From an uncultured Acidobacteriota bacterium (GTDB taxonomy: Bacteria > Acidobacteriota > Vicinamibacteria > Fen-336), in the NCBI GenBank assembly GCA_963720545.1, contig OY970399.1, positions 1,376,001-1,440,000 on the forward strand: 64,000 nt of DNA, given 5' to 3'. This document shows positions 9,641-24,589 of this stretch, piece after piece. The position numbers and the translations under genes are program-made. Numbering within the stretch: position 1 is the stretch's first letter; each line of letters begins with the position of its first letter. The notes under the pieces are model-generated. The model worked only from the letters and a program-made list of their open reading frames with translations, was not told the origin of the DNA and did not search any database.

Positions 9641-11056
9641 ATGGCGGAACAGCGCGGCTTCGAGTTCGATGAAAACGCGGCGAGGCGGCAGCCAGCCGCT
9701 GCGCCGCCGAAACCGGTGCGCACGCGCCGCGCGCTCAAGGTCTGGGAGCTGACCGAAGCCATTCAGGGAGTGCTCGAAACCGATTTCTTCGACGTCTGGG
9801 TCGAAGGCGAGATCTCGAACCTCAAGCTGGCGTCGTCCGGCCACTGGTATTTCTCGCTGAAGGACAACCGCGCCTCGATCCGCGCCGTCGTCTGGAAGAC
9901 CGCCACCCAGCTCATTCGCTTCCGCCCGAAAGACGGCCTGTCGGTGGTGGCGCGCGGTTCGGTGCGCGTCTATGCGGTGCGCGGCGAATACCAGATCTCG
10001 ATCGAGGTGCTGGAGCCGCTCGGCAAAGGCTCGCTGCAGCAGGCCTTCGAGGACCTGAAGGAGCGCCTCGCGAAGGAGGGGCTCTTCGATGCGGCGCGCA
10101 AACGGCCTCTGCCGATGCTGCCCCGCTGCCTCGGCATCATCAGCTCGCCCACCGGTGCCGTCATCTCCGACATCCTGCGCGTGCTGCGCACCCGTTACCG
10201 CAACGTGTCCGTGCAGGTCTATCCCGCGCGCGTGCAGGGGCCCGAGGCGGCCGGCGAGATCGTCGCCGGCATCCGCGCCCTCAATCGCCTCGGCGGGCTC
10301 GACGTCATCATCCTGGCGCGCGGCGGCGGCAGCCTCGAGGACCTGTGGCCCTTCAACAACGAGGGCGTGGCGCGCGCGCTCGCGAACTCGAGGATCCCGA
10401 CCATCTCGGCGGTGGGCCACGAGACCGACGTCACCATCGCCGACTTCGTCGCCGACGTCCGCGCCGCGACGCCAACGGCCGCGGCGCTCACCGTGGTCAA
10501 GGCCAAGGAAGACCTCGCGGCGCACGTGGTGGCGCTGCGCAACCGCGCGGCCGCGGGCCTGCGGCTGCGCCTCGAGCGCGTCTCGAGCCGGGTGCGGGCG
10601 CTCACCTCGCATCGCGTCTTCGAGGCCGAGCGCGGCCGGCTGCGTGCGAAGGCACAGCGCACCGACGAGCTGGTGGCGCGCGCCGCGATGCTCCTGGGCC
10701 GCCGGCGCCAGGTGGCGCGCACTGCCCTTGGCGGCGCTGCGCAGCGTCTCGAGCGGTTCCGCTTCGACCGGCAGGTGGCGCTGCGGCGCGACAGCACGAC
10801 AGCCCTCGACGCGCGCCTCGCGCGGGCAGCGGCGCGCACTCTCGAGGCGCGGCGCGGCAGCCTCGCGCGTCTCGCCGGCAAGCTCGAATCGCTTTCGCCG
10901 GTGGCGGTGCTGGCGCGCGGCTACGCGCTCGTCTGGACCGCGGACGGCACCCGGCTGGTGCGGCGCGCGACGGACGTCGCGGCCGGGGACAGGATCAGGA
11001 TCCGCCTGCACGAGGGCACGCTCGACGCCTCGGTGCTGGCCAAGGAGAACGAATGA
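9641..11056 (+). CDS. xseA: Exodeoxyribonuclease VII large subunit
   Basis: VEGEISN, GHWYFSLKD, ARGGGSLEDLWPFN, SAVGHETD, RAATPTAAA, VLARGYA. Confidence 0.96.
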   Translation: MAEQRGFEFDENAARRQPAAAPPKPVRTRRALKVWELTEAIQGVLETDFFDVWVEGEISNLKLASSGHWYFSLKDNRASIRAVVWKTATQLIRFRPKDGLSVVARGSVRVYAVRGEYQISIEVLEPLGKGSLQQAFEDLKERLAKEGLFDAARKRPLPMLPRCLGIISSPTGAVISDILRVLRTRYRNVSVQVYPARVQGPEAAGEIVAGIRALNRLGGLDVIILARGGGSLEDLWPFNNEGVARALANSRIPTISAVGHETDVTIADFVADVRAATPTAAALTVVKAKEDLAAHVVALRNRAAAGLRLRLERVSSRVRALTSHRVFEAERGRLRAKAQRTDELVARAAMLLGRRRQVARTALGGAAQRLERFRFDRQVALRRDSTTALDARLARAAARTLEARRGSLARLAGKLESLSPVAVLARGYALVWTADGTRLVRRATDVAAGDRIRIRLHEGTLDASVLAKENE

Positions 11057-11337
11057 CCGCAGAAACCCCGCTCAAGTTCGAAGGCGCCCTGGCCGAGCTC
11101 GAACAGATCGTCCAGCGACTCGAGCGCGGCGAGCTGGCCCTCGAGGAATCGCTGGCGCTCTACGAGCGTGGCGTGGCGCTGTCGCGCCTCTGCCACGAGA
11201 AGCTCGAGGAAGCCGAGGGCCGAATCGAATTGCTGCTGAAGGACGGCCGCGGCGACGTCGTCCTCGGCGCCGACGGCAAGCCGAAGACGGCGCCGCTGCC
11301 CGCGGACCCCGCCGACGATGACGACAAGTCCCGCTGA
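11053..11337 (+). CDS. xseB: Exodeoxyribonuclease VII small subunit
   Basis: MTAETPLKFEGALAELEQIVQRLERGELALEESLALYERG; ATG overlaps the xseA stop. Confidence 0.95.
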   Translation: MTAETPLKFEGALAELEQIVQRLERGELALEESLALYERGVALSRLCHEKLEEAEGRIELLLKDGRGDVVLGADGKPKTAPLPADPADDDDKSR

Positions 11338-12223
11338 GCTCCTCGCCGGCTATCGCGCGGCGGCGGACGCGGCGCTCGAGGAAGAGCTGCCGGCGGCCAC
11401 CGCCTGGCCGGCCTCGCTGCACGCAGCGATGCGCTACAGCCTGTTCGCCGGCGGCAAGCGCATCCGCCCGGCGCTGGTGTTCGCCGCTGCCGAAAGCGCC
11501 GGCGGCAGCTCCACCCAGCCTCTGGTGCTGCAGTTCGCGTGCGCGGTGGAGATGATCCACACGTACAGCCTGATCCACGACGACCTGCCGGCGATGGACG
11601 ACGACGACCTGCGCCGCGGCAAGCCGACCTGCCACAAGGTGTATGGCGAGGCGCTGGCGATTCTCGCGGGCGACGCGCTCCTGACGCGCGCGTTCGAGGT
11701 GCTGGGGCGCGAGGCGCCGGGCGCCGACGCCACCGCACTGCGCCGGCAGCTCGAAGCGACCGCAGTGCTCGCCTCGGCGTGCGGCACCACCGGGCTCATC
11801 GGCGGCCAGGTGGAGGACCTCGCCGCCGAGGGGTGCCCGGTGAATGCCGGAGAACTGGAACGGATTCATCGCGCCAAGACCGGCGCGCTGCTGCGCGCGT
11901 GCGTGGTGGGCGGCGCCATCCTCGTCGGTGCATCCGAGGACACGCGGACGGCGTTCGATGGCTACAGCCGCGACCTCGGCCTCGCCTTCCAGGTCGTGGA
12001 CGACATCCTCGATGCCACCGAGGACGCCGCGCGGCTCGGCAAGACCGCCGGCAAGGACGCGGCTGCCGACAAGGCGACCTACGTGCGCATCCACGGCCTG
12101 GAAGCGGCGCGCGCCAGCACCCGCACCCTGCTCGCGTCGGCGCTTTACTCTCTGGAGCCGCTCGGCCCGGCTGCCGAGCCGCTGCGCCAGCTCGCGCAGC
12201 TGGTGGTCGACCGGCGCGAGTGA
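11318..12223 (+). CDS. ispA: Polyprenyl (farnesyl) diphosphate synthase
   Basis: GGKRIRP, SLIHDDLPAMDDDDLRRGKPT, KTGAL, FQVVDDILD, GKTAGKD. Confidence 0.95.
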   Translation: MTTSPAELLAGYRAAADAALEEELPAATAWPASLHAAMRYSLFAGGKRIRPALVFAAAESAGGSSTQPLVLQFACAVEMIHTYSLIHDDLPAMDDDDLRRGKPTCHKVYGEALAILAGDALLTRAFEVLGREAPGADATALRRQLEATAVLASACGTTGLIGGQVEDLAAEGCPVNAGELERIHRAKTGALLRACVVGGAILVGASEDTRTAFDGYSRDLGLAFQVVDDILDATEDAARLGKTAGKDAAADKATYVRIHGLEAARASTRTLLASALYSLEPLGPAAEPLRQLAQLVVDRRE

Positions 12224-13032
12224 AAGCTCCGCCGCGGGTGCCGCGCGAGCGCCTCGACCGCGCGCTCGTCGCGCGCGGCCACGCCGAGTCGCGCCAGAAG
12301 GCGCAGGCGCTGATCATGGCCGGCAGCGTGCGGCTCGAGGACGAACGCGTCGCCAAGCCGGGCACCCTGGTTTCCGCCGACACCGCGATCGAAGTGGCGG
12401 CGGCGCCCGGGCACGTGGGCCGCGGCGCGCTCAAGCTCGGCCCCATCCTCGAGCGCTTTGCGATCGACGCGCGCGGGCTCACGGCACTCGACATCGGCGC
12501 CTCCACCGGCGGCTTCACCGAGGTGCTGCTCGCGGCGGGCGCGGCGCGCGTCTACGCGGTCGACGTGGGACGCGGGCAGCTGCACGAGCGCCTGCGCACC
12601 GATCCGCGCGTGCTGGTGCGCGACCGGGTCAATGCGCGGACGCTGTCGGCCGCGGTGATACCCGAGCGCGCGGCCATCGCCACCATCGACGTGTCGTTCA
12701 TCTCGGCCGTCAGGGTGCTCGAGGGAGCCGCGGCGGTGCTGGCCGCAGGAGCGCATGTCGTGTGTCTGGTGAAGCCGCAGTTCGAGGTGGGCCGCGGGCA
12801 AGTCGGCAAGGGCGGGCTCGTCAAGGACGCGCAGCTGCACCGGCAGTGCCTGAGCTCTGTTGCCCGCCGGGCGCAGGAGTTGGGCTACTCTCTTCGGGCG
12901 GCGGCGCCGTCTCCCATAACCGGAAGCGAAGGCAACCGTGAGTTTTTCCTGCACCTCGTCTTCGATTCGGGCAGCCCGGCAGCGCGCGCGGAGGAGATCG
13001 AAAGAATGGCCGATCGGGCGGTGAGCGAATGA
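12220..13032 (+). CDS. tlyA: TlyA family rRNA 2'-O-methyltransferase
   Basis: S4-like ERLD, RGALKL, LDIGASTGGFT, DVSFIS, LVKPQFE, GSEGNREF; GTG overlaps the ispA stop. Confidence 0.94.
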   Translation: MKAPPRVPRERLDRALVARGHAESRQKAQALIMAGSVRLEDERVAKPGTLVSADTAIEVAAAPGHVGRGALKLGPILERFAIDARGLTALDIGASTGGFTEVLLAAGAARVYAVDVGRGQLHERLRTDPRVLVRDRVNARTLSAAVIPERAAIATIDVSFISAVRVLEGAAAVLAAGAHVVCLVKPQFEVGRGQVGKGGLVKDAQLHRQCLSSVARRAQELGYSLRAAAPSPITGSEGNREFFLHLVFDSGSPAARAEEIERMADRAVSE

Positions 13033-13910
13033 TCGTCGGCATCATCGCGCGCAGCGACCTGAAGGCGGCGGGGCGGGTGCTGGGCGACCTGATCGCGTTC
13101 CTCAACGCACGCAACGCGCGCTGCATTGTCGAGACCGCCACGGCGCGGCTGCTGGACGGTGCGAAGGACGGCTTCAGCGTCGCCTCCGGCGCCGAGATGG
13201 GCAAGGCAGCCGACGTGCTCGTGGTCTTCGGCGGCGACGGCACGCTGCTGCGTGCGAGCCATCTCATCGCCAGCAACGAGACCTTGGTGCTGGGCGTCAA
13301 CTTCGGCAGCCTCGGCTTCCTCACCGAGATCGCGAGCGACGAACTGGAGGCGACGCTCGCCGACGTGCTCGCCGGCAACGCGCGCTTCGAGAATCGCAGC
13401 ATGCTGAGCGCCGCGATCACCCGCGGTGACAAGGAGAGCGAGCGCCACGACATCCTCAACGACGTGGTGGTCAGCAAGGCGTCGGTCTCGCGCATCATCG
13501 AGTTCGACGTCAGCATCGACCGCATTTTCGTCTCGGCGTTCCGCGCCGACGGCCTCATCATTTCTTCGCCCACCGGTTCGACGGCCTACAACCTCGCTGC
13601 CGGCGGCCCGATCCTGCATCCCGACCTGGCCGCGGTGCTGGTGACGCCCATCTGCCCGCACATGCTCAGCAACCGGCCGCTGGTGGTTGCCGACTCGAGC
13701 CGCATCGAGGTGAAGCTGCGCGACAACCGCCACGTGCCGGTGCACGTCAGTTTCGACGGCGAGAGCGGCGTGCCGCTCGAGACCGGCGACACCGTGGTCG
13801 TGACGCGCAGTGCGCGCGTGCTGCGCCTGGTGCGCTCGCCGCGGCGCGATTACTACGACGTCCTGCGCGCCAAGCTCAAATGGGGCGACTCGGCCGTGCG
13901 TCGTCCTTGA
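13029..13910 (+). CDS. nadK: NAD kinase
   Basis: GGDGTLL, NFGSLGFL, LND, ADGLIISSPTGSTAYNLAAGGP, PICPH. Confidence 0.96.
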   Translation: MIVGIIARSDLKAAGRVLGDLIAFLNARNARCIVETATARLLDGAKDGFSVASGAEMGKAADVLVVFGGDGTLLRASHLIASNETLVLGVNFGSLGFLTEIASDELEATLADVLAGNARFENRSMLSAAITRGDKESERHDILNDVVVSKASVSRIIEFDVSIDRIFVSAFRADGLIISSPTGSTAYNLAAGGPILHPDLAAVLVTPICPHMLSNRPLVVADSSRIEVKLRDNRHVPVHVSFDGESGVPLETGDTVVVTRSARVLRLVRSPRRDYYDVLRAKLKWGDSAVRRP

Positions 13911-13935
13911 TCCCGGAGCCCTGAACTCAGGAAGC

Positions 13936-16900
13936 ATGTCCTTCCGCATCACGATCCGCGGCACCACCGGCGCGCTCCGCCCGCCCAGCCAGCAGCAGCG
14001 CTTCGCCGTGGCTGCGGTGGCCATCGCGGCGGCCGCCTCGCTCTGCACCGCCTCCTATCACCTCGTGCCGACGAGCGCCGGAATCTGGCGCGGCATGGTG
14101 AACCCGCCGGGAGGGGCGCAGCTGGCGCTCGCCGTCATCCTCGGCGTCATCTTTTCGCTCGGCTTCCTGGGACTGCCGTGGCGCTGCAGCCGGTTGGTGC
14201 GCGTTGGCTTCGTGGCGGCGCTGCCGCTGGTGCCGCTCCTGACCGGCTGGGGCCGGGTGCTGCTCTTCTTCCAGGGCCCGGTGCTGCTGATCATTGTCGC
14301 GGCTGCCATCGGCATGATGCTGGTGCGGCGGCGCCAGCGCAACGAGTACGCGCCGGCACCGTTCGAACTGTTCGCGATTGGTTTCGTGCTGTTCCTGGCG
14401 CTCGGCCTGAGGCTGCCCGGTGCCGCCGGCCCGCAAGGCGACGAACCTCACTACCTGCTGATGGCGCGAAGCCTGGTGGCCGACCACGACCTCGACCTGG
14501 CGAACGACTTCGCGCAGCGGCGATACGCGCCCTTCTACGGAGGGGTGCTCGAAGCGCACACTTCGCCGCGCAGCCCGAAGGGGCGCATCTACGCGGTGCA
14601 CGCGCCGGGCCTGCCGGTGCTGCTCGCGCCGGGCTACGCCGCGGCCGGCTACTTCGGCGCGCGCGTGCTGATCGCGTTGCTCGCGGCCGCCACCGCGGCC
14701 CTCACCTACAGGCTGTGCGCCGAGGTGCTCGCCGATCGCGGCCCCGCGCTCGCCCTGTGGCTGGCGCTCGTCTGCACCGCGCCATTCGCGCTCTACGCGA
14801 CCAGCATCTACCCCGAGATGCCGGCGGCGTTCGCCACCGCGGTGTTCCTGCTGACGAGCCGCAAGGATCCCGGACCGCGCGCCCTCGCTGCCGTCGCGGC
14901 CTGCGCCGCACTCCTGCCGTGGATCCACCCCAAGTTCCTGCCGCTCGCCGCCGCGGGCCTGCTGTTCACGGTGGCCCGCCGCGGACCGCGCGCATGGCGC
15001 CGCGCGGCGGTCGCGGCGTTCGCGCTGTCGCTCGCCCTGCTCGCGTTCTTCTTCCGTTCGCACTACGGCTCGCCCTGGCCATCGGCCGCCTATGGTCCCG
15101 GGTACGGCGGCGATGTCTCGCTGCTGCGCGCGCCGCTGGGACTGCTCGGCTTCCTGTTCGATCGCCAGCACGGGTTGCTGTTCCTGAGCCCGGTGTGGCT
15201 GCTCGCGATTCCCGGCGTGCCGCTCCTGGCCCGCGAGCGCCTGGGCGACGCCTTGCGCGCGGGCCTGTTCGCGGCGGCGTCGCTGCTGGTGGGCGCCAGC
15301 TTCAGCATGTGGTGGGGCGGAGCGTGTCCGCCAGGACGGTTCGTGGTGCCGGCGCTGCCGGCGCTGGCGCTCTTCGTCGGCGCCGTCGCCGTGCGCCGGC
15401 ACGAGGTGACCGCGGCGCTGTGCGGCGTTGGCGCGGCCATCCTGGCGCTCGCGGCCTGGGCGCCACGCGCGCTCCACAACCGCGGCGACGGCGAGAGCGC
15501 GCTGCTGCGCTTCCTGGCGCCCGCGCTCGATCTCGACTCGCGGCTGCCCTCGCTGATCCTCGCCAACGGCGCCGGCATCCTGCTGCTCCTCTGCCTGGTC
15601 GGGGTGCTCACGCTCGCGTGGCGCTACACCCGCTACGGCTCGCTGGCCGGCGTCGCCGGCTACGCCGCTGTGGCGACGCTCGTCGCCGGCACGCCGATCC
15701 TCGACGGACGCGGCGCGACCCAGCAGCTGCTGTCCTTGTGGTGGCAGCCGCGCCTCACCGTCGGCACCACGCCGCCGCCCGCGCTGCGCGACCTGAGCCT
15801 GCCGCTCGACCTGCCGGATGCGCCGTGGGTGCTGGCGAAAGGCGACGAGCGCCACAGCCGGCGCTTCGAACTGCCCGCCGGCGTCTACCGCCTCGAGGCC
15901 GACCTGCGCCGGGAAACGGGTGAAGCCGCGACGCTGCGCGCGCAGTTCTTCGCCGGGGATGCGGTGCTCGCGGCCGGAAACTGGAAGACCGGCGCGGGCA
16001 GCACCCACGTCACTGCCGCGCTCGATGCCACCGTCGAGGAGGGCGCGCGCCGCCTGCAGGTTTCGGTGGCCGCTATCGACGGCCGCAGCCGGATCGCCGC
16101 ATTGCGGCTCATCCCGCTGGCGCTCGCCGCCTCCGCGGACGCAACCGCGGGCAACCTCGATGCCGCGATGAAGCCGCCGACCATGCCGGCCGCATCGCCG
16201 TCGGCGTCGCCGACACCGACGCCGACGCCGAAATCGATGGTCGAGGAGTGGCGCACGCCGACGACGCCGGCGCGCATCGTCGGCCCGATCTACTACGTCG
16301 GCACGCGCGACCTCGGCGTTTACCTGTTCACGACACCGGCTGGCCACATCCTCCTGGACGGTGCCGTCCCGGGTGCCGCGCCCGATATCCTGCGCTCCAT
16401 TCGCACCCTTGGCTTCAAGCCCGAGGATGTCCGCTTCCTGCTCATCAGTCAGGCGCATTTCGACCACGTGGGCACGCTTGCCGCGCTGAAGAAGGCGACC
16501 GGCGCAACTGTGATGGTGATGAGCGGCGACGAGGGCCTGGTGCGCGACGGCGGCGCCAGCGACTACCTGTTCGCGCGCGACCCTGCGATGCGCTTCGAGC
16601 CGGTCGCCGTCGAGCGGGTGCTGCGCGACGGCGAAACGGTTTCGCTCGGCAATATCGCCCTGCGCGCGCTGCGCACCCCCGGCCACACGCCGGGCACGAC
16701 CACCTGGACGACATCGGTGCGCGACCGCGGCCGGCGCTATTCGGTGGTGTTCCCCGGCAGCACCAGCATCAATCCGGGAACGCGCCTTGGCGCGGCACCT
16801 TCCTACCCCGGCATCGCGGACGACCTCCGCCATTCGTTCGAGGTGCTCGCCGGGCTGAAACCGGACATCTTCCTCACCGCGCACGCCGCGGCTTTCGACT

Positions 16901-17034
16901 TCGAGAAGAAGCGCGGACGCGCGATGCTGGAGGGGCCGCCCGCCTACGTCGATCCGGCCGGGTATGCCGCTTACGTGGCGGCCAGGCGGGCCGATTTCGC
17001 GAAGGCGCTCAGCGAATCGTCCGGCCGTCCATGA
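13936..17034 (+). CDS. Fusion of a multi-TM GT-C-like glycosyltransferase, a beta-rich extracytoplasmic domain, a P/S/T linker and a subclass B3 metallo-beta-lactamase
   Basis: One open frame; many hydrophobic helices with GDEPHY, DLDLAND, YPEMP, HPKF, WWGG..PGRF; C-terminal IYYVGT..., SQAHFDHVG, TPGHTPGTT, PDIFLTAH; ATG at 13936 chosen as start. Confidence 0.8.
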   Translation: MSFRITIRGTTGALRPPSQQQRFAVAAVAIAAAASLCTASYHLVPTSAGIWRGMVNPPGGAQLALAVILGVIFSLGFLGLPWRCSRLVRVGFVAALPLVPLLTGWGRVLLFFQGPVLLIIVAAAIGMMLVRRRQRNEYAPAPFELFAIGFVLFLALGLRLPGAAGPQGDEPHYLLMARSLVADHDLDLANDFAQRRYAPFYGGVLEAHTSPRSPKGRIYAVHAPGLPVLLAPGYAAAGYFGARVLIALLAAATAALTYRLCAEVLADRGPALALWLALVCTAPFALYATSIYPEMPAAFATAVFLLTSRKDPGPRALAAVAACAALLPWIHPKFLPLAAAGLLFTVARRGPRAWRRAAVAAFALSLALLAFFFRSHYGSPWPSAAYGPGYGGDVSLLRAPLGLLGFLFDRQHGLLFLSPVWLLAIPGVPLLARERLGDALRAGLFAAASLLVGASFSMWWGGACPPGRFVVPALPALALFVGAVAVRRHEVTAALCGVGAAILALAAWAPRALHNRGDGESALLRFLAPALDLDSRLPSLILANGAGILLLLCLVGVLTLAWRYTRYGSLAGVAGYAAVATLVAGTPILDGRGATQQLLSLWWQPRLTVGTTPPPALRDLSLPLDLPDAPWVLAKGDERHSRRFELPAGVYRLEADLRRETGEAATLRAQFFAGDAVLAAGNWKTGAGSTHVTAALDATVEEGARRLQVSVAAIDGRSRIAALRLIPLALAASADATAGNLDAAMKPPTMPAASPSASPTPTPTPKSMVEEWRTPTTPARIVGPIYYVGTRDLGVYLFTTPAGHILLDGAVPGAAPDILRSIRTLGFKPEDVRFLLISQAHFDHVGTLAALKKATGATVMVMSGDEGLVRDGGASDYLFARDPAMRFEPVAVERVLRDGETVSLGNIALRALRTPGHTPGTTTWTTSVRDRGRRYSVVFPGSTSINPGTRLGAAPSYPGIADDLRHSFEVLAGLKPDIFLTAHAAAFDFEKKRGRAMLEGPPAYVDPAGYAAYVAARRADFAKALSESSGRP

Positions 17035-18787
17035 CGATGGTGTCGACCGCATCGGTGCGCGGCACGAGCGACACCGAGGCGAGGTCGGCCGACGACTCGC
17101 CGCCGCCGCGGCCGAGCGTCACGAACACGTCGTCGCCCTGAGCGTACTCGAACGGCTGGCGCACCAGGAACTCGCCAGCCATCGGCCATGCCGTGTAACG
17201 CGGCGGGCCGCTGCGAAAGCTCGAGACGCCGACGTAGAGGATGCCGCGGCCGCGGCCTGCGACCCGCACCTCGAGGCGGCGCGCGGCGGTTGCGGGAAGC
17301 GCTCGCAGGAAGACCCCGTCCCAGCGCCCGCGCAGTTCGGCGTGCCCGCCCGCTATGCGCGCGCCGCGCTCGAGATGCGCATCCTTGAAGTTGTTCTCGG
17401 CGCCCGAGACCACCATGCTCCCGGCGGCGAACAGGAGGCGCGACCCCGACGGCGAACCGGGAACGAAGCGGTGCTCGGCAACCAGCACGCGCTGGTCGCG
17501 CACCATCGGCAGCGCCGCGATCAGGACGTGCTCCCGCAGGTGGAACGGGATGGGGCTGTCGCGAACGTTCCAGACCCACGAACGGTCGGCAGGCGCGCCG
17601 GCCCGCTGGTAGAGCCGCTCCCAGCGATAGTCGTATGCGAACGCCCCGAGGAGCTGCACGCCGATCGACACCGCTGCCGCGAGCGCGAACAGCGGCCGCG
17701 ACACGAACCGCCCTTCCGGCGTGAACAGGAACAAGAGCGGCAGCGCGTCGGTCAGGAGCCGCGGGCCGAAACTCTCGCCGCCATGCCATTCGCCCCAAAG
17801 CCCGATCACCAGGACGTGCACGGCGAGCGCCGCGCCAAGCGTGCCGGCGAGCCAGCGCTCGCCCGCGCGCCACGAACGGACCATGCCGACGAGGCCGAAG
17901 AGCGCCACCGGCGTGAAGACGAAAAGACCCTTCGCCGGCGAGAAGAGGAGCGCCAGGTGGCCGCGCCCGAAGGGCTCGGTGAAGCGCGACCCTCCGCCCG
18001 AGAAGGCATTGCGCCACGGCGAGCCGAAATACTCGAACTGATAGAGGGCCACGAGCAGCACCGGCGCGAGCCCCCAGAGGACCATGCCGAGGATGCGGCG
18101 CGGGTAGCGCACGGCAAGGCCGAGAAAAATCACCGCCACCATCGGCGCGGCGGCATGGCGGGCGGCGGCGCAGAGCGCGAGCGGCAGCGCGGCGCGCGCG
18201 ATCCAGGCGTCGTCTTCGCGCTGTTCGCCGCGCACGATGAAGACGAGTGCCAGCGACAGGCACGCGACCGCCGCCGGGTGCTGCCACAGCGCCTGGCTGG
18301 TGGCGAAGACCGTCGTGCCGAGCGCGAACACCAGCGCCGCGACCCGGCCGTCGGGCTCGGCGTGGCGCCTTGCGACCGCGCGATAGAGGAAGGCAGCGGC
18401 GAGCGCCGCGAACAGCGCCGCGGCCCACTTCCCCGCGAGCTGCGTGCCCGTGTCGTCGAGGACGAAGAAGAGTTTCGCCGCGGCGAACAAGGGCGCCGCC
18501 GCGACTGCGGTGAGCACCGGATAAACGGAGACCCGGTGCACACCCGCCGTCTTCGCGAACGGCTCGGTGACTGCCGGGTACTCGTCGAGGTCGAGATTGC
18601 CCGTGGTCACGAGACTCGCGGCCACATGCTCGCTGACGCGCGAATCGCCCGAGCCGATCGGCCGGCCGTTCGCCACCAGGATCACGAACACCGCAAGCGC
18701 CAGCAACAGCGTGGCGCGCAGGGACGGCTCGCGCGCGACAGAGCCGGCGATGATCGGCGCGTCGCCCTCGGGAGAGCGAACTCCCAA
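17009..18787 (-). CDS. Multi-TM GT-C-like membrane glycosyltransferase homologue with C-terminal beta domain
   Basis: Many TM segments; GSGD, LDLDEY, LWQH, FSPAKGLFVFTP, WHGGESFGPRLL parallel motifs in the opposite gene; start uncertain (TTG at 18787 just after the mltG stop). Confidence 0.65.
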   Translation of the reverse strand: MGVRSPEGDAPIIAGSVAREPSLRATLLLALAVFVILVANGRPIGSGDSRVSEHVAASLVTTGNLDLDEYPAVTEPFAKTAGVHRVSVYPVLTAVAAAPLFAAAKLFFVLDDTGTQLAGKWAAALFAALAAAFLYRAVARRHAEPDGRVAALVFALGTTVFATSQALWQHPAAVACLSLALVFIVRGEQREDDAWIARAALPLALCAAARHAAAPMVAVIFLGLAVRYPRRILGMVLWGLAPVLLVALYQFEYFGSPWRNAFSGGGSRFTEPFGRGHLALLFSPAKGLFVFTPVALFGLVGMVRSWRAGERWLAGTLGAALAVHVLVIGLWGEWHGGESFGPRLLTDALPLLFLFTPEGRFVSRPLFALAAAVSIGVQLLGAFAYDYRWERLYQRAGAPADRSWVWNVRDSPIPFHLREHVLIAALPMVRDQRVLVAEHRFVPGSPSGSRLLFAAGSMVVSGAENNFKDAHLERGARIAGGHAELRGRWDGVFLRALPATAARRLEVRVAGRGRGILYVGVSSFRSGPPRYTAWPMAGEFLVRQPFEYAQGDDVFVTLGRGGGESSADLASVSLVPRTDAVDTIVMDGRTIR

Positions 18788-18789
18788 GC

Positions 18790-19926
18790 TCAGCGCCCGC
18801 GCGAAGAAGAAGACGCTGCCGAGGGCGACGGTGGCGGCGCTGAGGGCGCGGCGGGCGGCTGCGGGCTCGCGTCGGGGACCGGCGAGGTTTCGGGGGACGC
18901 CTCGGGCGAAGGCGAGGCGCCGCCGCCGCCGGCGCGCTGGTACAGGTTCACCGCCTTGTTGTGCTCGGCGAGCGTGCGGCTGAAGGCGTGCGTGCCGTCG
19001 TTGCGGCTCACGAAGTAGAGGTCCTCGCTGGGCGTCGGACGCAGCACGGCGCGAATCGCCTCGATCCCCGGCGCGCCGATCGGTCCGGGCGGCAGGCCCG
19101 GCCACTTGTAGGTGTTGTACGGCGAGTCGATCGCGAGGTCCTTCTTGCGGATGTTGCCGTCGAAGCGGCCGGCCTCGCGCAGCGCATAGATGATGGTGGG
19201 GTCGGTCTGCAACAGCATGCTCTTGCGCAGGCGGTTCAGGAACACCCCGGCGATGCGCGGCCGTTCGCTGCCGCGCGCCGTTTCCATCTCCACCAGCGAG
19301 GCCAGCGTGACGATCTGCCGCAGCGTCATCCCGCTCGCCGCGATCGCCTCGCGCTCGGGTGCGATCACCTCGCGGAAGCGCTGCACCATGCGCACGATCA
19401 GCGCCTTCTCGGGCGCGTCGATGTAGGTCGAGACCTGGTAGGTGTCGGGGAACAGGTAACCCTCGAGGTCGTGCGCCGCAGGGTCGAGGTCGGCGATTGC
19501 GGCGGGATCGCTAGCCAGGTCGAGGAAGGTGGTGGGCCGCAGGCCGGCGCCGTCGACGATTTCCGCCATCTCGCGCAACGTGCGTCCTTCGGGAAAGGTC
19601 ACGCCCTTGTTGGCCGTCTCGCCGCGCACCAGCATCTCGACGATGTCGGCGAGCGTCAGCGGGCCATCCACCGCATAGTCGCCCGCGCGCAGCCGGGTCC
19701 CCGTGCCCTGCAGGTAGACGAGGGCCCGGAACACCCACGGATAGCGCACCAGGCCGAGACCCTGCAGCTGCCGGCCGATGCTCTCGCCGGTGGCGCCCTG
19801 CGGCACGGTGAATGGCAGCGGCGGATCGCCCACGCGGCGCACCGGCAGGCGCGTCTCACGCAGCCAGAAGCCATAGGCCACGGCGGCGAGCGCAGCAAGG
19901 ATCGTGATGCGCCGCAGCCACTTCAC
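18790..19926 (-). CDS. mltG: Endolytic peptidoglycan transglycosylase MltG with a P/S/A-rich tail
   Basis: N-terminal TM, VTFPEG, LEGYLFPDTY, LASLVEME, LQTDPT, SPYNTY..GLPPGPI, LYFV; GTG start at 19926. Confidence 0.95.
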   Translation of the reverse strand: MKWLRRITILAALAAVAYGFWLRETRLPVRRVGDPPLPFTVPQGATGESIGRQLQGLGLVRYPWVFRALVYLQGTGTRLRAGDYAVDGPLTLADIVEMLVRGETANKGVTFPEGRTLREMAEIVDGAGLRPTTFLDLASDPAAIADLDPAAHDLEGYLFPDTYQVSTYIDAPEKALIVRMVQRFREVIAPEREAIAASGMTLRQIVTLASLVEMETARGSERPRIAGVFLNRLRKSMLLQTDPTIIYALREAGRFDGNIRKKDLAIDSPYNTYKWPGLPPGPIGAPGIEAIRAVLRPTPSEDLYFVSRNDGTHAFSRTLAEHNKAVNLYQRAGGGGASPSPEASPETSPVPDASPQPPAAPSAPPPSPSAASSSSRGR

Positions 19927-20425: not shown

Positions 20426-22501
20426 ATGAGCACCAGCTTCGCGCTTCGCGCCGCCCTCCTGCCCGCCCTGCTGGCCACTTTGGCCGGCTGTCAACCGAAG
20501 ACGCAGAAGCCGGAGCGCAAGGCCGCGCACAAGGTTTTCGTCATGGGTTTCGACGGCATGGATCCGAACCTGGCCCGCAAGTTCATGGACGAAGGCAAGT
20601 TGCCGAACCTCAAGAAACTGGCGGATGCCGGCACCTTCTCGAAGCTCGAGACCACACAGCCGTCCGAGTCCCCGGTGGCCTGGGCCAGCTTCGCGACCGG
20701 CGTCAACCCCGGCAAGCACAACATCTACGACTTCCTGGTGCGCAACCTGGACACGTACATGCCCGACCTCGCCGGCGTCGGCAAGGAGCCGCCGCGGTTC
20801 TTCTGGGGCATCCCGACGAAGGCCCCGCGGGTCTGGTCTACGCGCGGCGGGACGTCCTTCTGGGTGCACGCCGGTCTTGACGGTTTGCGCAGCACAGTGC
20901 TGACCGTGCCGATGACTTTCCCGCCCGAGGACATCGAGCACGGACGGATGCTGTCGGGCCTGCCGGCACCCGACGTGCGCGGCACCATCGGCACATTCAG
21001 CTACTGGGCGTCCGATGTCTCCTCGTTCGAGGAGGGCGCCAGCGAGTTCGGCGGCTGGACCAAGCGGCTCCTGTTCGAGAACGGAGTAGCGCACTCCTTC
21101 GTGCGCGGCCCGGAAAACCCGATCCTGCGCCAGGAAGAGACCGAACTGCGGGCGAAGCAGAAGGACGGCAAGCTATCCGAGAAGGACAGCGCGCGCCTCG
21201 AGGAGCTTGCCGGCACCAAGGACATCACGATCCCGCTGAACGTCACCTGGTCGGAGGGCAAGGGCGCCGCCGACATCGAGATCCAGGGCACCAAAATGAC
21301 GCTCAAGCCCGGCGAATGGAGCGCCTGGGTGCCGCTGTCCTTCTCGGCCAACTGGCTGGTGAAGATCAGGACGATGATGCAGTTCCTGGTGGTGCGCGCC
21401 GACAACGAGATCCAGATCTACGGCACGCCTGTGAATCTCGACCCGCGCAACCCGCCGACCCCGCTCTCGAAGCCGGACGGCTTCTCGAAGGAACTCGCAC
21501 AGGACGCCGGCCTGTTCCGCACCGTCGGCTGGGCCGAGCCAACCTGGCCGCTCAACGAGGGCCGCATCGACGAAGCCACGTTCATGAACGACTCGCAGCG
21601 CGCGTTCAAGGAGCGCGAGAACCTGATCTTCAGCCGGCTCAAGAAGGACGACTGGGACCTGTTCGTCGCCGTCATCGAGACGACCGACCGCGTCTCGCAC
21701 ATGATGTTCCGCCTCATCGACCCGAAGCACCCGATGTACGACGCCGAGCTGGCGGCCAGGCACGGCGACAGCATCGAGAAGGTGTACCGCTGGGCCGACG
21801 ACCTCGTGGGCCGCATCCAGCAGCAGCTACCGCCCGAGACCACGCTCTTCGTCATGTCCGACCACGGCTTCCATTCGTTCCGCCGCGGTGTCAACCTCAA
21901 CACTTGGCTGGCCCAGCACGGCTACCTGGTGTTCGAGGGCCAGCAGAGCGGCGAGAAGAAGACGCTTGCCGACCTGTTCGGCCACGGCAAGTTCTGGGAA
22001 GGCGTCGACTGGAGCCGCACGCGCGCCTACGCCGTGGGCCTCGGCCAGATCTACTTCAACCTGAAGGGCCGTGAGGCGCACGGCATCGTCTCCGCAGGGG
22101 CCGAGTACCAGGCGCTGCAGAACGAGATCGCGTCAGGCCTGCTGCCGGTCGTCGATCCCGAGTCGAACGGCCCGGTGTTCGGCGCCGTCTACAAGCGCGA
22201 CGACATCTACAAGGGCGACTACATCCAGAACGCGCCGGACGTGCAGGTGGGCTTCAACGACGGCTACCGCGTCGGCTGGCAGGACAGCCTCGGCCAGATC
22301 CAGCGCGAGGTGGTGGAGAACAACAACCGCAAGTGGAGCGGCGACCATTGCGCCACCGTCTCCGAAATCAGCGGCGGCGTCATCTTCTCGAACCGCAAGC
22401 TGAACCGCGAAAAGCCCCACATCATGGACCTGGCCTCAACCATCCTGAGCCTCCTCGGCGCCCCGGCGCCCCAGGACACAGACGGCTCCCCGCTGATGTA
22501 G
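20426..22501 (+). CDS. Alkaline-phosphatase-superfamily (type I phosphodiesterase/nucleotide pyrophosphatase) lipoprotein
   Basis: Lipobox LAGC; GFDGMD, PSESPVAWASFATG, TDRVSH, MSDHGF, WSGDH. Confidence 0.88.
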   Translation: MSTSFALRAALLPALLATLAGCQPKTQKPERKAAHKVFVMGFDGMDPNLARKFMDEGKLPNLKKLADAGTFSKLETTQPSESPVAWASFATGVNPGKHNIYDFLVRNLDTYMPDLAGVGKEPPRFFWGIPTKAPRVWSTRGGTSFWVHAGLDGLRSTVLTVPMTFPPEDIEHGRMLSGLPAPDVRGTIGTFSYWASDVSSFEEGASEFGGWTKRLLFENGVAHSFVRGPENPILRQEETELRAKQKDGKLSEKDSARLEELAGTKDITIPLNVTWSEGKGAADIEIQGTKMTLKPGEWSAWVPLSFSANWLVKIRTMMQFLVVRADNEIQIYGTPVNLDPRNPPTPLSKPDGFSKELAQDAGLFRTVGWAEPTWPLNEGRIDEATFMNDSQRAFKERENLIFSRLKKDDWDLFVAVIETTDRVSHMMFRLIDPKHPMYDAELAARHGDSIEKVYRWADDLVGRIQQQLPPETTLFVMSDHGFHSFRRGVNLNTWLAQHGYLVFEGQQSGEKKTLADLFGHGKFWEGVDWSRTRAYAVGLGQIYFNLKGREAHGIVSAGAEYQALQNEIASGLLPVVDPESNGPVFGAVYKRDDIYKGDYIQNAPDVQVGFNDGYRVGWQDSLGQIQREVVENNNRKWSGDHCATVSEISGGVIFSNRKLNREKPHIMDLASTILSLLGAPAPQDTDGSPLM

Positions 22502-22504
22502 CGG

Positions 22505-24589
22505 TTACTCCACGAGGCCGCCCATGAGCGGATCGGTGATGCTGTCTTCGCCGCTTTCGATGTGGCCCGCGAGCTGGCGCTCGAAGGACCCGTCGTCGGC
22601 CGCGGTGATGACGAAGTCGTACCAGCCGTGGGTGAGCGACAGCGGCCAGTGGCGTGACGCAGACTCGCCTTCGGCCAGGATGACGCGCGCCTGCGTGTGC
22701 GCGTTGTTGTTGGCGATCCGGACGTCGGCCTGGCTGCGGGCGCGGTTCGTGATCTCGAGGGTGATGCCCTTGCCCGCGGCGCCGTAGGTGGCGCGGACTT
22801 CGAGCTCGGCGTGGCCTTCATTGGCGGGTCCGCCCTTGAAGCTGCGCAGGAAGCCGTTCGGCCCATGGACGGTGAGGTCGTACTCGCCGGTGTTCCAGTC
22901 GTCGCTCACGTGCTTGCGCCGCTCGACCGTGTAGGTGCGGGGCGCATCGGCGCCGGGCGTACGTACCTGGAAGACCGCCGCCTGGTCGCCGGTGTTGCGG
23001 AAGTTGAGGCGGAAAGAGCCGCTCGCGGCGACCGACCCGTTCACGTGCAGCTCGTACGGCAGGGCGCGCGCCCGCTTCACGCCGCGTTCCTGCCGCGGCA
23101 GGGACTGGTTCGTGGGCGGCACCGGCACCTCGTCGGGCTGGCGTTCGAGCACCTCGGGCTTGTCGTCCACGGTGCTCGGCAGCATCAGGCGGCGGAGCAG
23201 GTTGGGCTTCTTGAAGTCGAAGGCGTTCGTCAGGTCGCCGCTGACGGCGCGGCGCCAGGGGGTGATGTTGCTTTCGATGAGGTCCGGACGGCCCTTGGCG
23301 AAGCGCTCCTCGAGGAAGCGGATCAGCGAAGTGTGGTCGAAGAGCTGCGAGTCGACCCAGCCGCCGCGGCTCCACGGCGAAACCACGAGCATCGGCACGC
23401 GCATGCCGAAGCCGTAGGGCGCGCTGACGAAGTCGGTGTCGCCGGGAAAGATCTCGTTGGTCGTCGGCACGGTCGAGAGACCCTCGGCGCGCGACTGCGG
23501 CGGGGTCGGCGGCACCAGGTGGTCGAAGAAGCCGCCCTCTTCGTCATAAGTAATGAAGAGCGCCGTCTTGCTGAAGACATCGGGCGAGGCGGCCAGGATG
23601 TCGATGATCTGCGAGAGGTACCAGGCGCCGAAGTCGGGCTCCCAGTTGGGGTGCTCGGTGTACGCCTCGGGCGCCACGATCCACGATACCTTCGGCAGCT
23701 TTCCACTGCGCACGTCGTCGCGGAAGATGTCGAGGAGCTTCTCGGGGTCGCGATTCTCGGCGCTGATGAGGGTGCCGGTCTTGGCGCGATCGGCGAGCGG
23801 CGTGCCGGGCGCCGCGTTCTGGTACTGGTGGAAATAGAGCAGCGAGTTGTCGCCGTAGTTACCGATGAATGGGTCGCCGGTCCAACCCCAGAACCCCGCC
23901 GCGTCGAGGCCGACGCCCTGGTCCTGGTAGACCTTCCAGGAGATGCCGTTGCGCTGCAGACGCTCGGGATAGGTCGACCAATCGTAGCCGGCTTCCGCGT
24001 TAGTGATCACCGGGCCGCCGCCGTTGCCGTCGTTCCCCACCCAGCCGGTCCACATGTGGTAGCGGTTAGGGTCGGTCGGGCCCATCAGCGAGCAGTAGTA
24101 GTTGTCGCAGATGGTGAACGCATCGGCGAGCGCGTACTGGTAGGGCAGGTCGGCGCGCGTGTGGTGCGTCATCGTCTGCACGCCCTTGTTCGGCACGAAC
24201 TGGTCGTGCCGGCCCGCGTTCCACGCGGCGTGCGTGTCGTTCCAGCCGTGCGGCGGGTCGGGCAGGAAGGTGGCGCCGAGGTCTTCGACCGGCGGGCGGA
24301 ACGGCAGCAGGTAGTTGGCACCGTCGGGCTGGTGGAACGCCGAGAGCCCCGAGGGCAGGCGCACCACGCGCGGGTCGGCGAAGCCGCGGACGCCGCGCAT
24401 CGTGCCGAAGTAGTGGTCGAACGAGCGGTTCTCCTGCATGAAGATGACGACGTGGCCGACGTCGGCGATGGTGCCCGTGGGGCTGTGCGCGTCGATGTCG
24501 AGCGCGCGGCTGATGCTGCCGGGCAGCGCCGCGGCCACCGCCGGTGCGCCCATCAGCTTGAGGAATGTGCGGCGGTTGTTCTCGGTCAT
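22505..24589 (-). CDS. Phosphocholine-specific phospholipase C (Tat-exported, phosphoesterase family with C-terminal beta domains)
   Basis: Tat motif NRRTFLK; MQENRSFDHYFG, TDPNR, TEHP, DEEGGFFDH, RVPMLVVSPWS, FDHTS, HGPNGFLR. Confidence 0.93.
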   Translation of the reverse strand: MTENNRRTFLKLMGAPAVAAALPGSISRALDIDAHSPTGTIADVGHVVIFMQENRSFDHYFGTMRGVRGFADPRVVRLPSGLSAFHQPDGANYLLPFRPPVEDLGATFLPDPPHGWNDTHAAWNAGRHDQFVPNKGVQTMTHHTRADLPYQYALADAFTICDNYYCSLMGPTDPNRYHMWTGWVGNDGNGGGPVITNAEAGYDWSTYPERLQRNGISWKVYQDQGVGLDAAGFWGWTGDPFIGNYGDNSLLYFHQYQNAAPGTPLADRAKTGTLISAENRDPEKLLDIFRDDVRSGKLPKVSWIVAPEAYTEHPNWEPDFGAWYLSQIIDILAASPDVFSKTALFITYDEEGGFFDHLVPPTPPQSRAEGLSTVPTTNEIFPGDTDFVSAPYGFGMRVPMLVVSPWSRGGWVDSQLFDHTSLIRFLEERFAKGRPDLIESNITPWRRAVSGDLTNAFDFKKPNLLRRLMLPSTVDDKPEVLERQPDEVPVPPTNQSLPRQERGVKRARALPYELHVNGSVAASGSFRLNFRNTGDQAAVFQVRTPGADAPRTYTVERRKHVSDDWNTGEYDLTVHGPNGFLRSFKGGPANEGHAELEVRATYGAAGKGITLEITNRARSQADVRIANNNAHTQARVILAEGESASRHWPLSLTHGWYDFVITAADDGSFERQLAGHIESGEDSITDPLMGGLVE

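Follow-up and report, generated by a model that had tools for sequence, protein, structure and literature searches.

A GT-C-fold membrane protein fused in frame to a B3-Q metallo-beta-lactamase domain in an uncultured Vicinamibacteria bacterium

In this study, a single gene was investigated in a 64,000-nucleotide stretch of DNA from an uncultured Acidobacteriota bacterium (contig OY970399.1, positions 1,376,001 to 1,440,000; hereafter the window, whose coordinates are used unless a genome coordinate is named), and we observed that it joins two known superfamilies in a rare, conserved and new architecture. The product of the gene, P0001, harbors in order a GT-C-fold membrane domain, a beta-sandwich resembling carbohydrate-binding modules (CBM), a Pro/Ser/Thr linker and a metallo-beta-lactamase (MBL) domain of the B3-Q type, and its named relatives belong to the Vicinamibacteria of the phylum Acidobacteriota. 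The gene lies on the single 4.09-Mb contig of its source genome (G000). We consider it probable, with real room for doubt, that an orphan GT-C protein acquired, at its variable periplasmic C-terminus, a secreted B3-Q enzyme that had lost its signal peptide, and that this enzyme serves there as a membrane-tethered beta-lactamase-type hydrolase independently of glycosylation.

The gene is a single frame of 1032 residues at 13936-17034 on the forward strand, the translation of which has no internal stops. Since DNA of about 70% guanine plus cytosine (GC) can give long frames by chance, the frame was compared with other assemblies. Parts of the stretch are present in 20 public DNA runs, none recorded as RNA, and contigs from eight of these, originating from several studies, were compared; each covers part of the gene, uncovered parts were left out, and the source sample itself might be any of these runs. 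No difference was noticed in contigs X2 (16050-16255), X4 (15821-16187 and 16210-16390), X7 (16058-16208) and X5 (16029-16292), and one was recorded in X3 (16127-16550). Contig X10 (16099-16303) displays seven substitutions and no gaps, representing a second allele, which agrees with the linker of P0002, a gene call from a close relative, and has lost two of the three Met codons of the linker. Contigs of four runs bridge the linker, and no gap was found in the bridging contigs at 16100-16240, the interval that the first-pass annotation of this stretch had singled out for checking, so its claim of an in-frame fusion holds. The same fusion was disclosed in relatives, as that annotation had also asked, with P0003 (1018 residues, 60% identity, from JGI) and P0004 (1019 residues, 59% identity, from ENA) being full-length homologues of the same architecture, which is kept in three sequence clusters. 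Among 120 listed homologues out of 164, the MBL motif was observed in three, namely P0002 (96% identity), P0003 and P0004.

Two gene calls weigh against an intact fused gene, as P0122 and P0002 are two separate calls for what should be one gene of the close relative, and the cluster member P0123 (265 residues), identical in reading to residues 768-1032, is called as a separate gene from Met768 on another long contig. These split calls on two ENA long contigs, together with the origin of the gene from one uncultured assembly and the absence of the junction from the 77 other genomes of the order, would fit an assembly artefact or a recent chance read-through of two adjacent genes, which is contradicted by the short-read contigs of several studies that bridge the linker, including the gapless allele with seven substitutions, and by the same fusion in two diverged proteins from JGI and ENA. 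Moreover, the break between P0122 and P0002 is located at residues 373-413, outside the linker, where the tail of P0122 reads like two successive frameshifts in the same DNA, and a conserved remnant of a signal peptide is absent. The in-frame fusion is real and not an assembly error, as the linker is covered gaplessly in contigs of other runs and proteins of about 60% identity share the architecture; the artefact is largely refuted, and we regard it as very improbable.

The MBL domain spans residues 771-1027 by the NCBIfam model bla_subclass_B3 (score 300.3 bits, cut-off 240 bits, profile positions 1-256 of 257), and Lactamase_B (residues 795-983) was the sole Pfam match on P0001. This agrees with the B3 identity proposed by the first-pass annotation, with a correction to the metal motif, which has Gln where the first His would stand. 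One site is made up of Gln839, His841 and His917 and the other of Asp843, His844 and His983 (QHH/DHH), and position 116 is Gln839 instead of the His of the canonical HHH/DHH set. Ser942 aligns to the Ser of FEZ-1, and Ser at position 221, rather than a bridging Asp or Cys, is what we take to be a feature of B3 enzymes, which Ser942 fits. Other hydrolases of the MBL fold hold a bridging Asp at this position. With Ser942 so aligned, the esterase activity that had been offered as an alternative is less likely than a beta-lactamase-type site. The QHH/DHH motif was defined as B3-Q by Pedroso et al., and in the available part of that paper E. coli gained resistance from B3-Q enzymes (PMC7381538).

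Several observations count against a beta-lactamase function. B3-Q was the weakest of the resistance-conferring groups in the same part of that paper (PMC7381538), the position of FEZ-1 Tyr228 is Thr in P0001, and the best characterised relative found, FEZ-1, is distant, at 208 bits and E 2e-60 over a full-length alignment. The cut-offs of the named B3 families exceed the scores obtained, as seen for GOB (155.6 against 560), FEZ (204.6 against 600) and HARLDQ (194.3 against 350). The domain also aligned over its full length with LRA-12 (E 1e-51) and falls in a clade of environmental enzymes of 56-64% identity, none with a solved structure. Furthermore, six class-A-like (PF13354) genes scored above cut-off in G000, of which the fused domain is the sole strong B3 match, indicating a beta-lactamase-rich organism in which need for, or dependence on, the fused MBL is not evident. 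These PF13354 genes are located at G000:C1 319343, 441151, 878413, 933938, 1885726 and 1888721, two of them 3 kb apart. Under the preferred reading, the MBL is nevertheless likely a zinc-binding beta-lactam hydrolase.

None of the six ligand positions has been lost from the fused proteins. Identical residues between P0001 and P0002 number 253 of 255 in the MBL, compared with 117 of 124 for the beta domain and 36 of 42 for the linker, and those between P0003 and P0004 number 219 of 255 in the MBL and 505 of 571 in the transmembrane (TM) part, suggesting that the fused MBL domain is under constraint on par with the membrane domain. The codon usage of the MBL is slightly atypical (codon adaptation index 0.62, the 5th percentile of the reference set; GC at third codon positions 0.86), which is no proof of recent transfer, and a repeat search detected no insertion sequence ends or target duplication at the junction.

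For the membrane half, residues 1-735 were modelled from 100 sequences (pLDDT 93.2, pTM 0.92), and when VIA compared this model with the structures of 48,161 chains, the ten best rows were all GT-C enzymes, with Z between 13.8 and 21.8. ArnT (GT83; root-mean-square deviation 4.1, 326 residues aligned) and ALG12 (GT22; 4.2, 325 aligned) tie at Z 21.8, followed by Pmt of the PMT family (GT39) at 18.4, AglB at 18.2 and PglB at 16.4, with identities of only 11-16%. Foldseek matched the membrane-half model to EmbC and ArnT and the beta domain to CBM6, and residues 601-731 compared with CBM22/35/36-type sandwiches at VIA Z 9-10. The GDEPHY loop occupies residues 168-173, and its Asp169-Glu170 pair, which does not vary among the aligned homologues (100 of 100), lies upstream of the first external-loop helix; the available part of PMC12331936 places the catalytic Asp of the GT-C DE/DxD motif there, upstream of HH1. 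No match of P0001 to PMT_2/GT87 or any other Pfam GT-C family was detected at E <= 0.1, and PMT_2 matched 2 of 30 homologues below cut-off, so that the assignment rests on fold. The model thus indicates that the membrane half has a GT-C fold with an intact predicted Asp-Glu loop, bearing out the GT-C-like part of the first-pass annotation, and the PMT_2 profile search it had suggested returned no match. In the ESM Atlas, the membrane part fell into unnamed clusters and the C-terminal part scored below 0.9. A full-length AlphaFold model was left unused, with MBL pLDDT below 50 and only 4 of 24 alignment rows covering that domain, and the mixed alignments A3 and A5 were dropped for GT-C rows misaligned onto the MBL.

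Helices are placed at residues 142, 241, 268, 294, 314, 332, 352, 414, 436, 468, 489, 545 and 568, and counting from the helix before the Asp-Glu loop, which is taken as periplasmic, gives 13 crossings and an outward C-terminus, with inner loops carrying one to four Lys/Arg each. The count depends on residues 545-584, where a single membrane crossing would place the MBL in the cytoplasm, and there the evidence is divided. DSSP assigns one unbroken helix to this segment, which speaks against an outward MBL and for an MBL-fold domain with a non-antibiotic cytoplasmic substrate. Hydropathy instead peaks twice, at residues 540-558 and 570-588, with a basic, Gly-containing turn bearing two Arg between the peaks; the structural alignments with the beta domain (VIA ranks 34, 44 and 46) include outer-loop residues near 45 and at 518-520, an indirect indication; and the stalk type and the relatives of the MBL are of the exported-protein kind. 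A cytoplasmic C-terminus appears quite improbable to us. By PhoA reporter, the C-terminus of a mycobacterial PMT, itself a GT-C, was placed outside, according to the part of PMC12331936 available. We predict that the MBL is located in the periplasm, with residues 545-584 forming a hairpin, in line with the membrane-tethered enzyme proposed by the first-pass annotation.

No signal peptide of its own precedes the MBL of P0001, the in-frame linker having no conserved hydrophobic stretch. By a heuristic search, 113 of the 120 nearest stand-alone MBLs harbor a hydrophobic N-terminal segment, which among 30 displayed frequently runs on into a stalk of Pro/Ala/Thr similar to the linker, and the linker resembles the stalks that follow the signal peptide in stand-alone B3 relatives. 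It is also similar to the (S/T)P repeats of exported proteins in G000, where 22 predicted proteins, P0001 among them, have at least four Ser/Thr-Pro pairs within 16 residues; judged by eye, the other 21 include at least 14 that appear to be exported. Such (Ser/Thr)-Pro repeats are candidate O-glycosylation sites. MltG (window 18790-18930, reverse strand) ends in a Ser/Pro-rich tail, and 20 other ORFs of G000 were noted along with it.

The linker could also release the MBL, so that a fused gene would yield a free enzyme by proteolysis of the linker or by an internal start. It is of low confidence in the model, variable and provided with three ATG codons, the last consideration being joined by the P0123 call from Met768 in another assembly. 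Yet neither P0002 nor X10 keeps Met745 and Met750, the linkers of P0003 and P0004 have no Met, and no run resembling a ribosome-binding site precedes any linker ATG; no promoter-like site was detected in 12800-17400, a weak test. An internal start would moreover yield a protein with no export signal, and P0003 and P0004 do not have the Ala-x-Ala stretch that follows the beta domain. We judge a freely working MBL to be rather unlikely.

With regard to distribution, no listed match spanning both halves was detected outside G000 in 61 relatives or in 78 genomes of the order, nor in 401 genomes of the class including those 78, with only six candidates scored per genome, making this a weak negative; further or more distant fused members may exist. 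No fused form was found in the plasmid records searched. An MBL was present in 0 of 100 homologous loci, not all of which are independent. Sixty of the loci extend through the whole beta domain to a stop, with at least 900 nt following downstream in 49 of these, and after the beta domain 25 of the 60 end within 30 residues, the remaining 35 carrying a further 70-190 residues. The periplasmic C-terminus of this GT-C family appears from these comparisons to be a variable slot. The nadK gene was found in 20 of the 60 complete unfused loci and a convergent GT-C-like gene in 20 of 60, and the order nadK, GT-C, convergent GT-C-like gene and mltG recurs in unfused relatives, indicating a tight convergent junction as the place of MBL insertion. 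The first-pass annotation had likewise called the MBL appended, by comparison with the convergent gene; the appending stands, whereas that gene is a distant paralogue (31% over 151 residues) and unfused orthologues are the better comparison. An extra C-terminal domain of about 130-190 residues, with no Pfam match, was observed in over half of the complete unfused homologues (L031-L130), and its overlap with the convergent gene's 3' end was noticed in several loci. One GT-C homologue, P0062 (1266 residues), known from one contig only, harbors a C-terminal arylsulfotransferase (ASST).

Stand-alone B3 genes were observed in 21 of 58 genomes of the family, and no GT-C gene was near any of these 21 same-family loci within flanks of about 1.5 kb. 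A search of long proteins with a B3 domain gave 48 matches, three of which are GT-C fusions. The other partners include M19, M1 and M28 peptidases, lipase and other alpha/beta hydrolases and an amidohydrolase, and further DUF3500, DUF1254/1214, BNR and PA14 domains (11 fusions rescanned), and among 120 near-length matches META fusions and one fusion with a DUF456 membrane protein (P0192) were noticed. B3 domains are thus fused to at least ten unrelated partner types and seem to be common passengers on exported proteins. P0192, found on three contigs, carries DUF456 before its B3 MBL and no signal peptide, and is a second apparent membrane-tethered B3 protein. In P0125-P0162, 5 of 38 are without a HxHxDH-type motif, lipase fusions included. 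The varied B3 partners, the variable C-terminal slot and the lack of a neighbourhood link favour tethering over a shared pathway.

This bears on the coupling to envelope glycosylation that the first-pass annotation had supposed, in which the MBL would trim or unmask the substrate or product of the GT-C half, or the GT-C half would O-glycosylate its own Pro/Ser/Thr stalk. Retention of the fusion over about 40% divergence, the predicted location of both active sites on the same face and the arylsulfotransferase, a different periplasmic enzyme, in the same C-terminal region of one homologue are compatible with coupling. So are the repeats that mark at least 14 of the 21 other repeat proteins of G000 as exported, by eye, and, from partly available sources, the preference of mycobacterial PMT for Ser/Thr in proline-rich peptides (PMC12331936) and the promiscuity possible in B3 enzymes (PMC10318434). 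However, with no MBL in the 100 homologous loci and no GT-C gene at the 21 stand-alone B3 loci, a prior partnership is unsupported, and these counts, with the at least ten partner types, tell against the supposition. The MBL keeps a plain B3-Q site, common to 86 of 120 stand-alone relatives, and the fold match does not single out PMT, as ArnT and ALG12 score higher. We hold coupling to be unlikely, if somewhat conceivable. A bolder and similarly doubtful proposal is that the GT-C family comprises periplasmic O-glycosyltransferases for the (Ser/Thr)-Pro stalks of exported Vicinamibacteria proteins, here fused to its own client, giving a self-glycosylating tethered MBL, or that a B3-Q enzyme was repurposed as an envelope-processing hydrolase.

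Under the preferred reading of an appended, glycosylation-independent hydrolase, a normally secreted B3-Q gene would have landed at the GT-C gene's 3' end, within the tight convergent junction, with loss of the signal peptide and retention of the Pro/Ser/Thr stalk as the linker. The last GT-C helix would thread the CBM-like domain and the MBL outward, and the MBL would borrow the promoter, export route and anchor of the GT-C protein, bind periplasmic zinc and hydrolyse beta-lactams at the inner membrane. The GT-C half would likely keep its ancestral job of transferring sugar from a lipid-phosphate donor to a periplasmic acceptor.

Whether the MBL was captured once or twice was considered from trees of both halves. 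In the GT-C tree, for which 32 rows were selected out of 120 homologues, the GT-C halves of P0001, P0003 and P0004 form one clade (96/97) with the unfused P0005 and P0006 outside, and grouping P0005 with either fused branch was rejected by the approximately unbiased (AU) test (p-AU 0.030 and 0.012, the groups having been named after seeing the tree). In the MBL trees (129 rows with FastTree, 52 rows with IQ-TREE), the fused MBL domains are not sisters when the topology is free, and the P0003 MBL has 73% identity to the stand-alone P0177 and 62% to P0001. Forcing a single MBL clade gave an AU p of 0.385, by which it is neither rejected nor shown. Rare shared residues favour one origin at strict thresholds, where 1 of 120 stand-alone proteins matches equally; at a threshold of 0.2, 23 of 120 do and the preference is lost. 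One fusion with faster change in this lineage would be the simplest reading of these sequences, and two captures or a domain replacement are possible; two independent MBL captures at the same C-terminus, if true, would mark the pairing as selected.

Comparing P0001 with known systems, it shares the bla_subclass_B3 match and full-length FEZ-1/LRA-12 alignment with FEZ-1, its nearest relative of solved structure, and the B3-Q MBLs (GOB, LRA-12, PEDO-1), the QHH/DHH set being that of B3-Q, and differs from the B3-Q enzymes in having no signal peptide and in forming the terminal domain of a chain that has about 17 TM helices. With the GT-C enzymes (ArnT, ALG12/ALG9, PMT, AglB/PglB, EmbC/AftD) it shares the core fold (Z 16-22) and the Asp-Glu first external loop, and its C-terminal beta-sandwich is as in EmbC and AftD; it differs by 12-16% identity and an extra N-terminal membrane module. 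A polytopic membrane domain with a C-terminal MBL-fold domain is also the layout of the DNA-uptake channel ComEC/Rec2. The gross layout is the same, but the membrane part of P0001 is GT-C and its MBL is of the B3 rather than the nuclease type; no Competence domain was among the Pfam and NCBIfam matches listed for P0001. NDM-1 is a lipoprotein held at the outer membrane by a lipid anchor. LRA-13 is a fusion of class C and class D enzymes, two soluble serine enzymes, according to the part of PMC5967600 available. As in these two, a beta-lactamase is part of a larger chain or tied to a membrane, and the anchor of P0001 differs in being a complete inner-membrane enzyme.

Structure, sequence and open literature searches disclosed no solved or described GT-C protein with an MBL domain, within the open literature, in line with the first-pass annotation, to which the architecture was unfamiliar. 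The available parts of the texts of PMC13674405 and PMC8066302 make no mention of such fusions, and their supplements could list the sequence. B3 enzymes are abundant in Vicinamibacterales (PMC13674405, in part), and B3-Q and MBL promiscuity have been described (PMC10318434, in part). If the predictions hold, P0001 would show that in nature a complete inner-membrane enzyme, rather than a signal peptide or lipid, can export and anchor a beta-lactamase-type domain, and the wider pattern of B3 fusions in soil bacteria bears on whether these domains are resistance factors or general periplasmic hydrolases. The MBL could also act as a built-in reporter of topology and expression for a large uncharacterised GT-C family. 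Being rare, chromosomal, from an uncultured soil lineage and absent from plasmids in the records, the fusion has no evident clinical bearing.

Table 1. Positions in the window of the fused gene, its parts and the adjoining genes
Feature	Positions	Strand	Basis
Fused gene, product P0001, 1032 residues	13936..17034	+	Translation; contigs of other runs bridge the junction
Extra N-terminal membrane module, residues 1-135, with TM helices (about 4 predicted) and, at residues 40-55, a beta-hairpin	13936..14340	+	Model, hydropathy
GT-C-fold core, residues 137-540	14344..15555	+	VIA structural comparison, Foldseek
Asp169-Glu170 in first external loop, predicted GT-C catalytic motif	14440..14445	+	Invariance among homologues; PMC12331936 (in part)
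Last membrane segment, residues 545-584, putative two-helix hairpin with basic cytoplasmic turn	15568..15687	+	Hydropathy, two Arg in the turn
CBM-like beta-sandwich, residues 601-730	15736..16125	+	VIA, Foldseek
Pro/Ala/Ser/Thr-rich linker, residues 731-770, no signal peptide	16126..16245	+	Sequence, comparison of homologues
B3-Q MBL domain, residues 771-1032	16246..17034	+	Pfam, NCBIfam, ligand residues
Upstream NAD kinase gene (nadK), ending 25 nt before the start codon	13029..13910	+	Pfam
Convergent distant GT-C-like gene, 3' end overlapping the MBL end by 26 nt; start approximate	17009..18901	-	Pfam, NCBIfam

In the neighbourhood, at window 9641-13910, genes that we take to be xseA-, xseB-, ispA- and tlyA-like, together with nadK, precede the GT-C gene. 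The gene recN usually follows where the GT-C gene stands. At least eight further GT-C-like membrane genes were noticed in G000, at C1 482965, 616517, 690123, 2173919, 2573045, 2597460 and 3246749 and at window 17009-18901, several of which display a DE-x-x-Y loop, forming an expanded uncharacterised GT-C set. Further along the window (20426-24589), a gene for a lipoprotein-like member of the type I phosphodiesterase family converges on a Tat-type phospholipase C gene, and a selenocysteine tRNA gene was observed at G000:C1 862138-862236.

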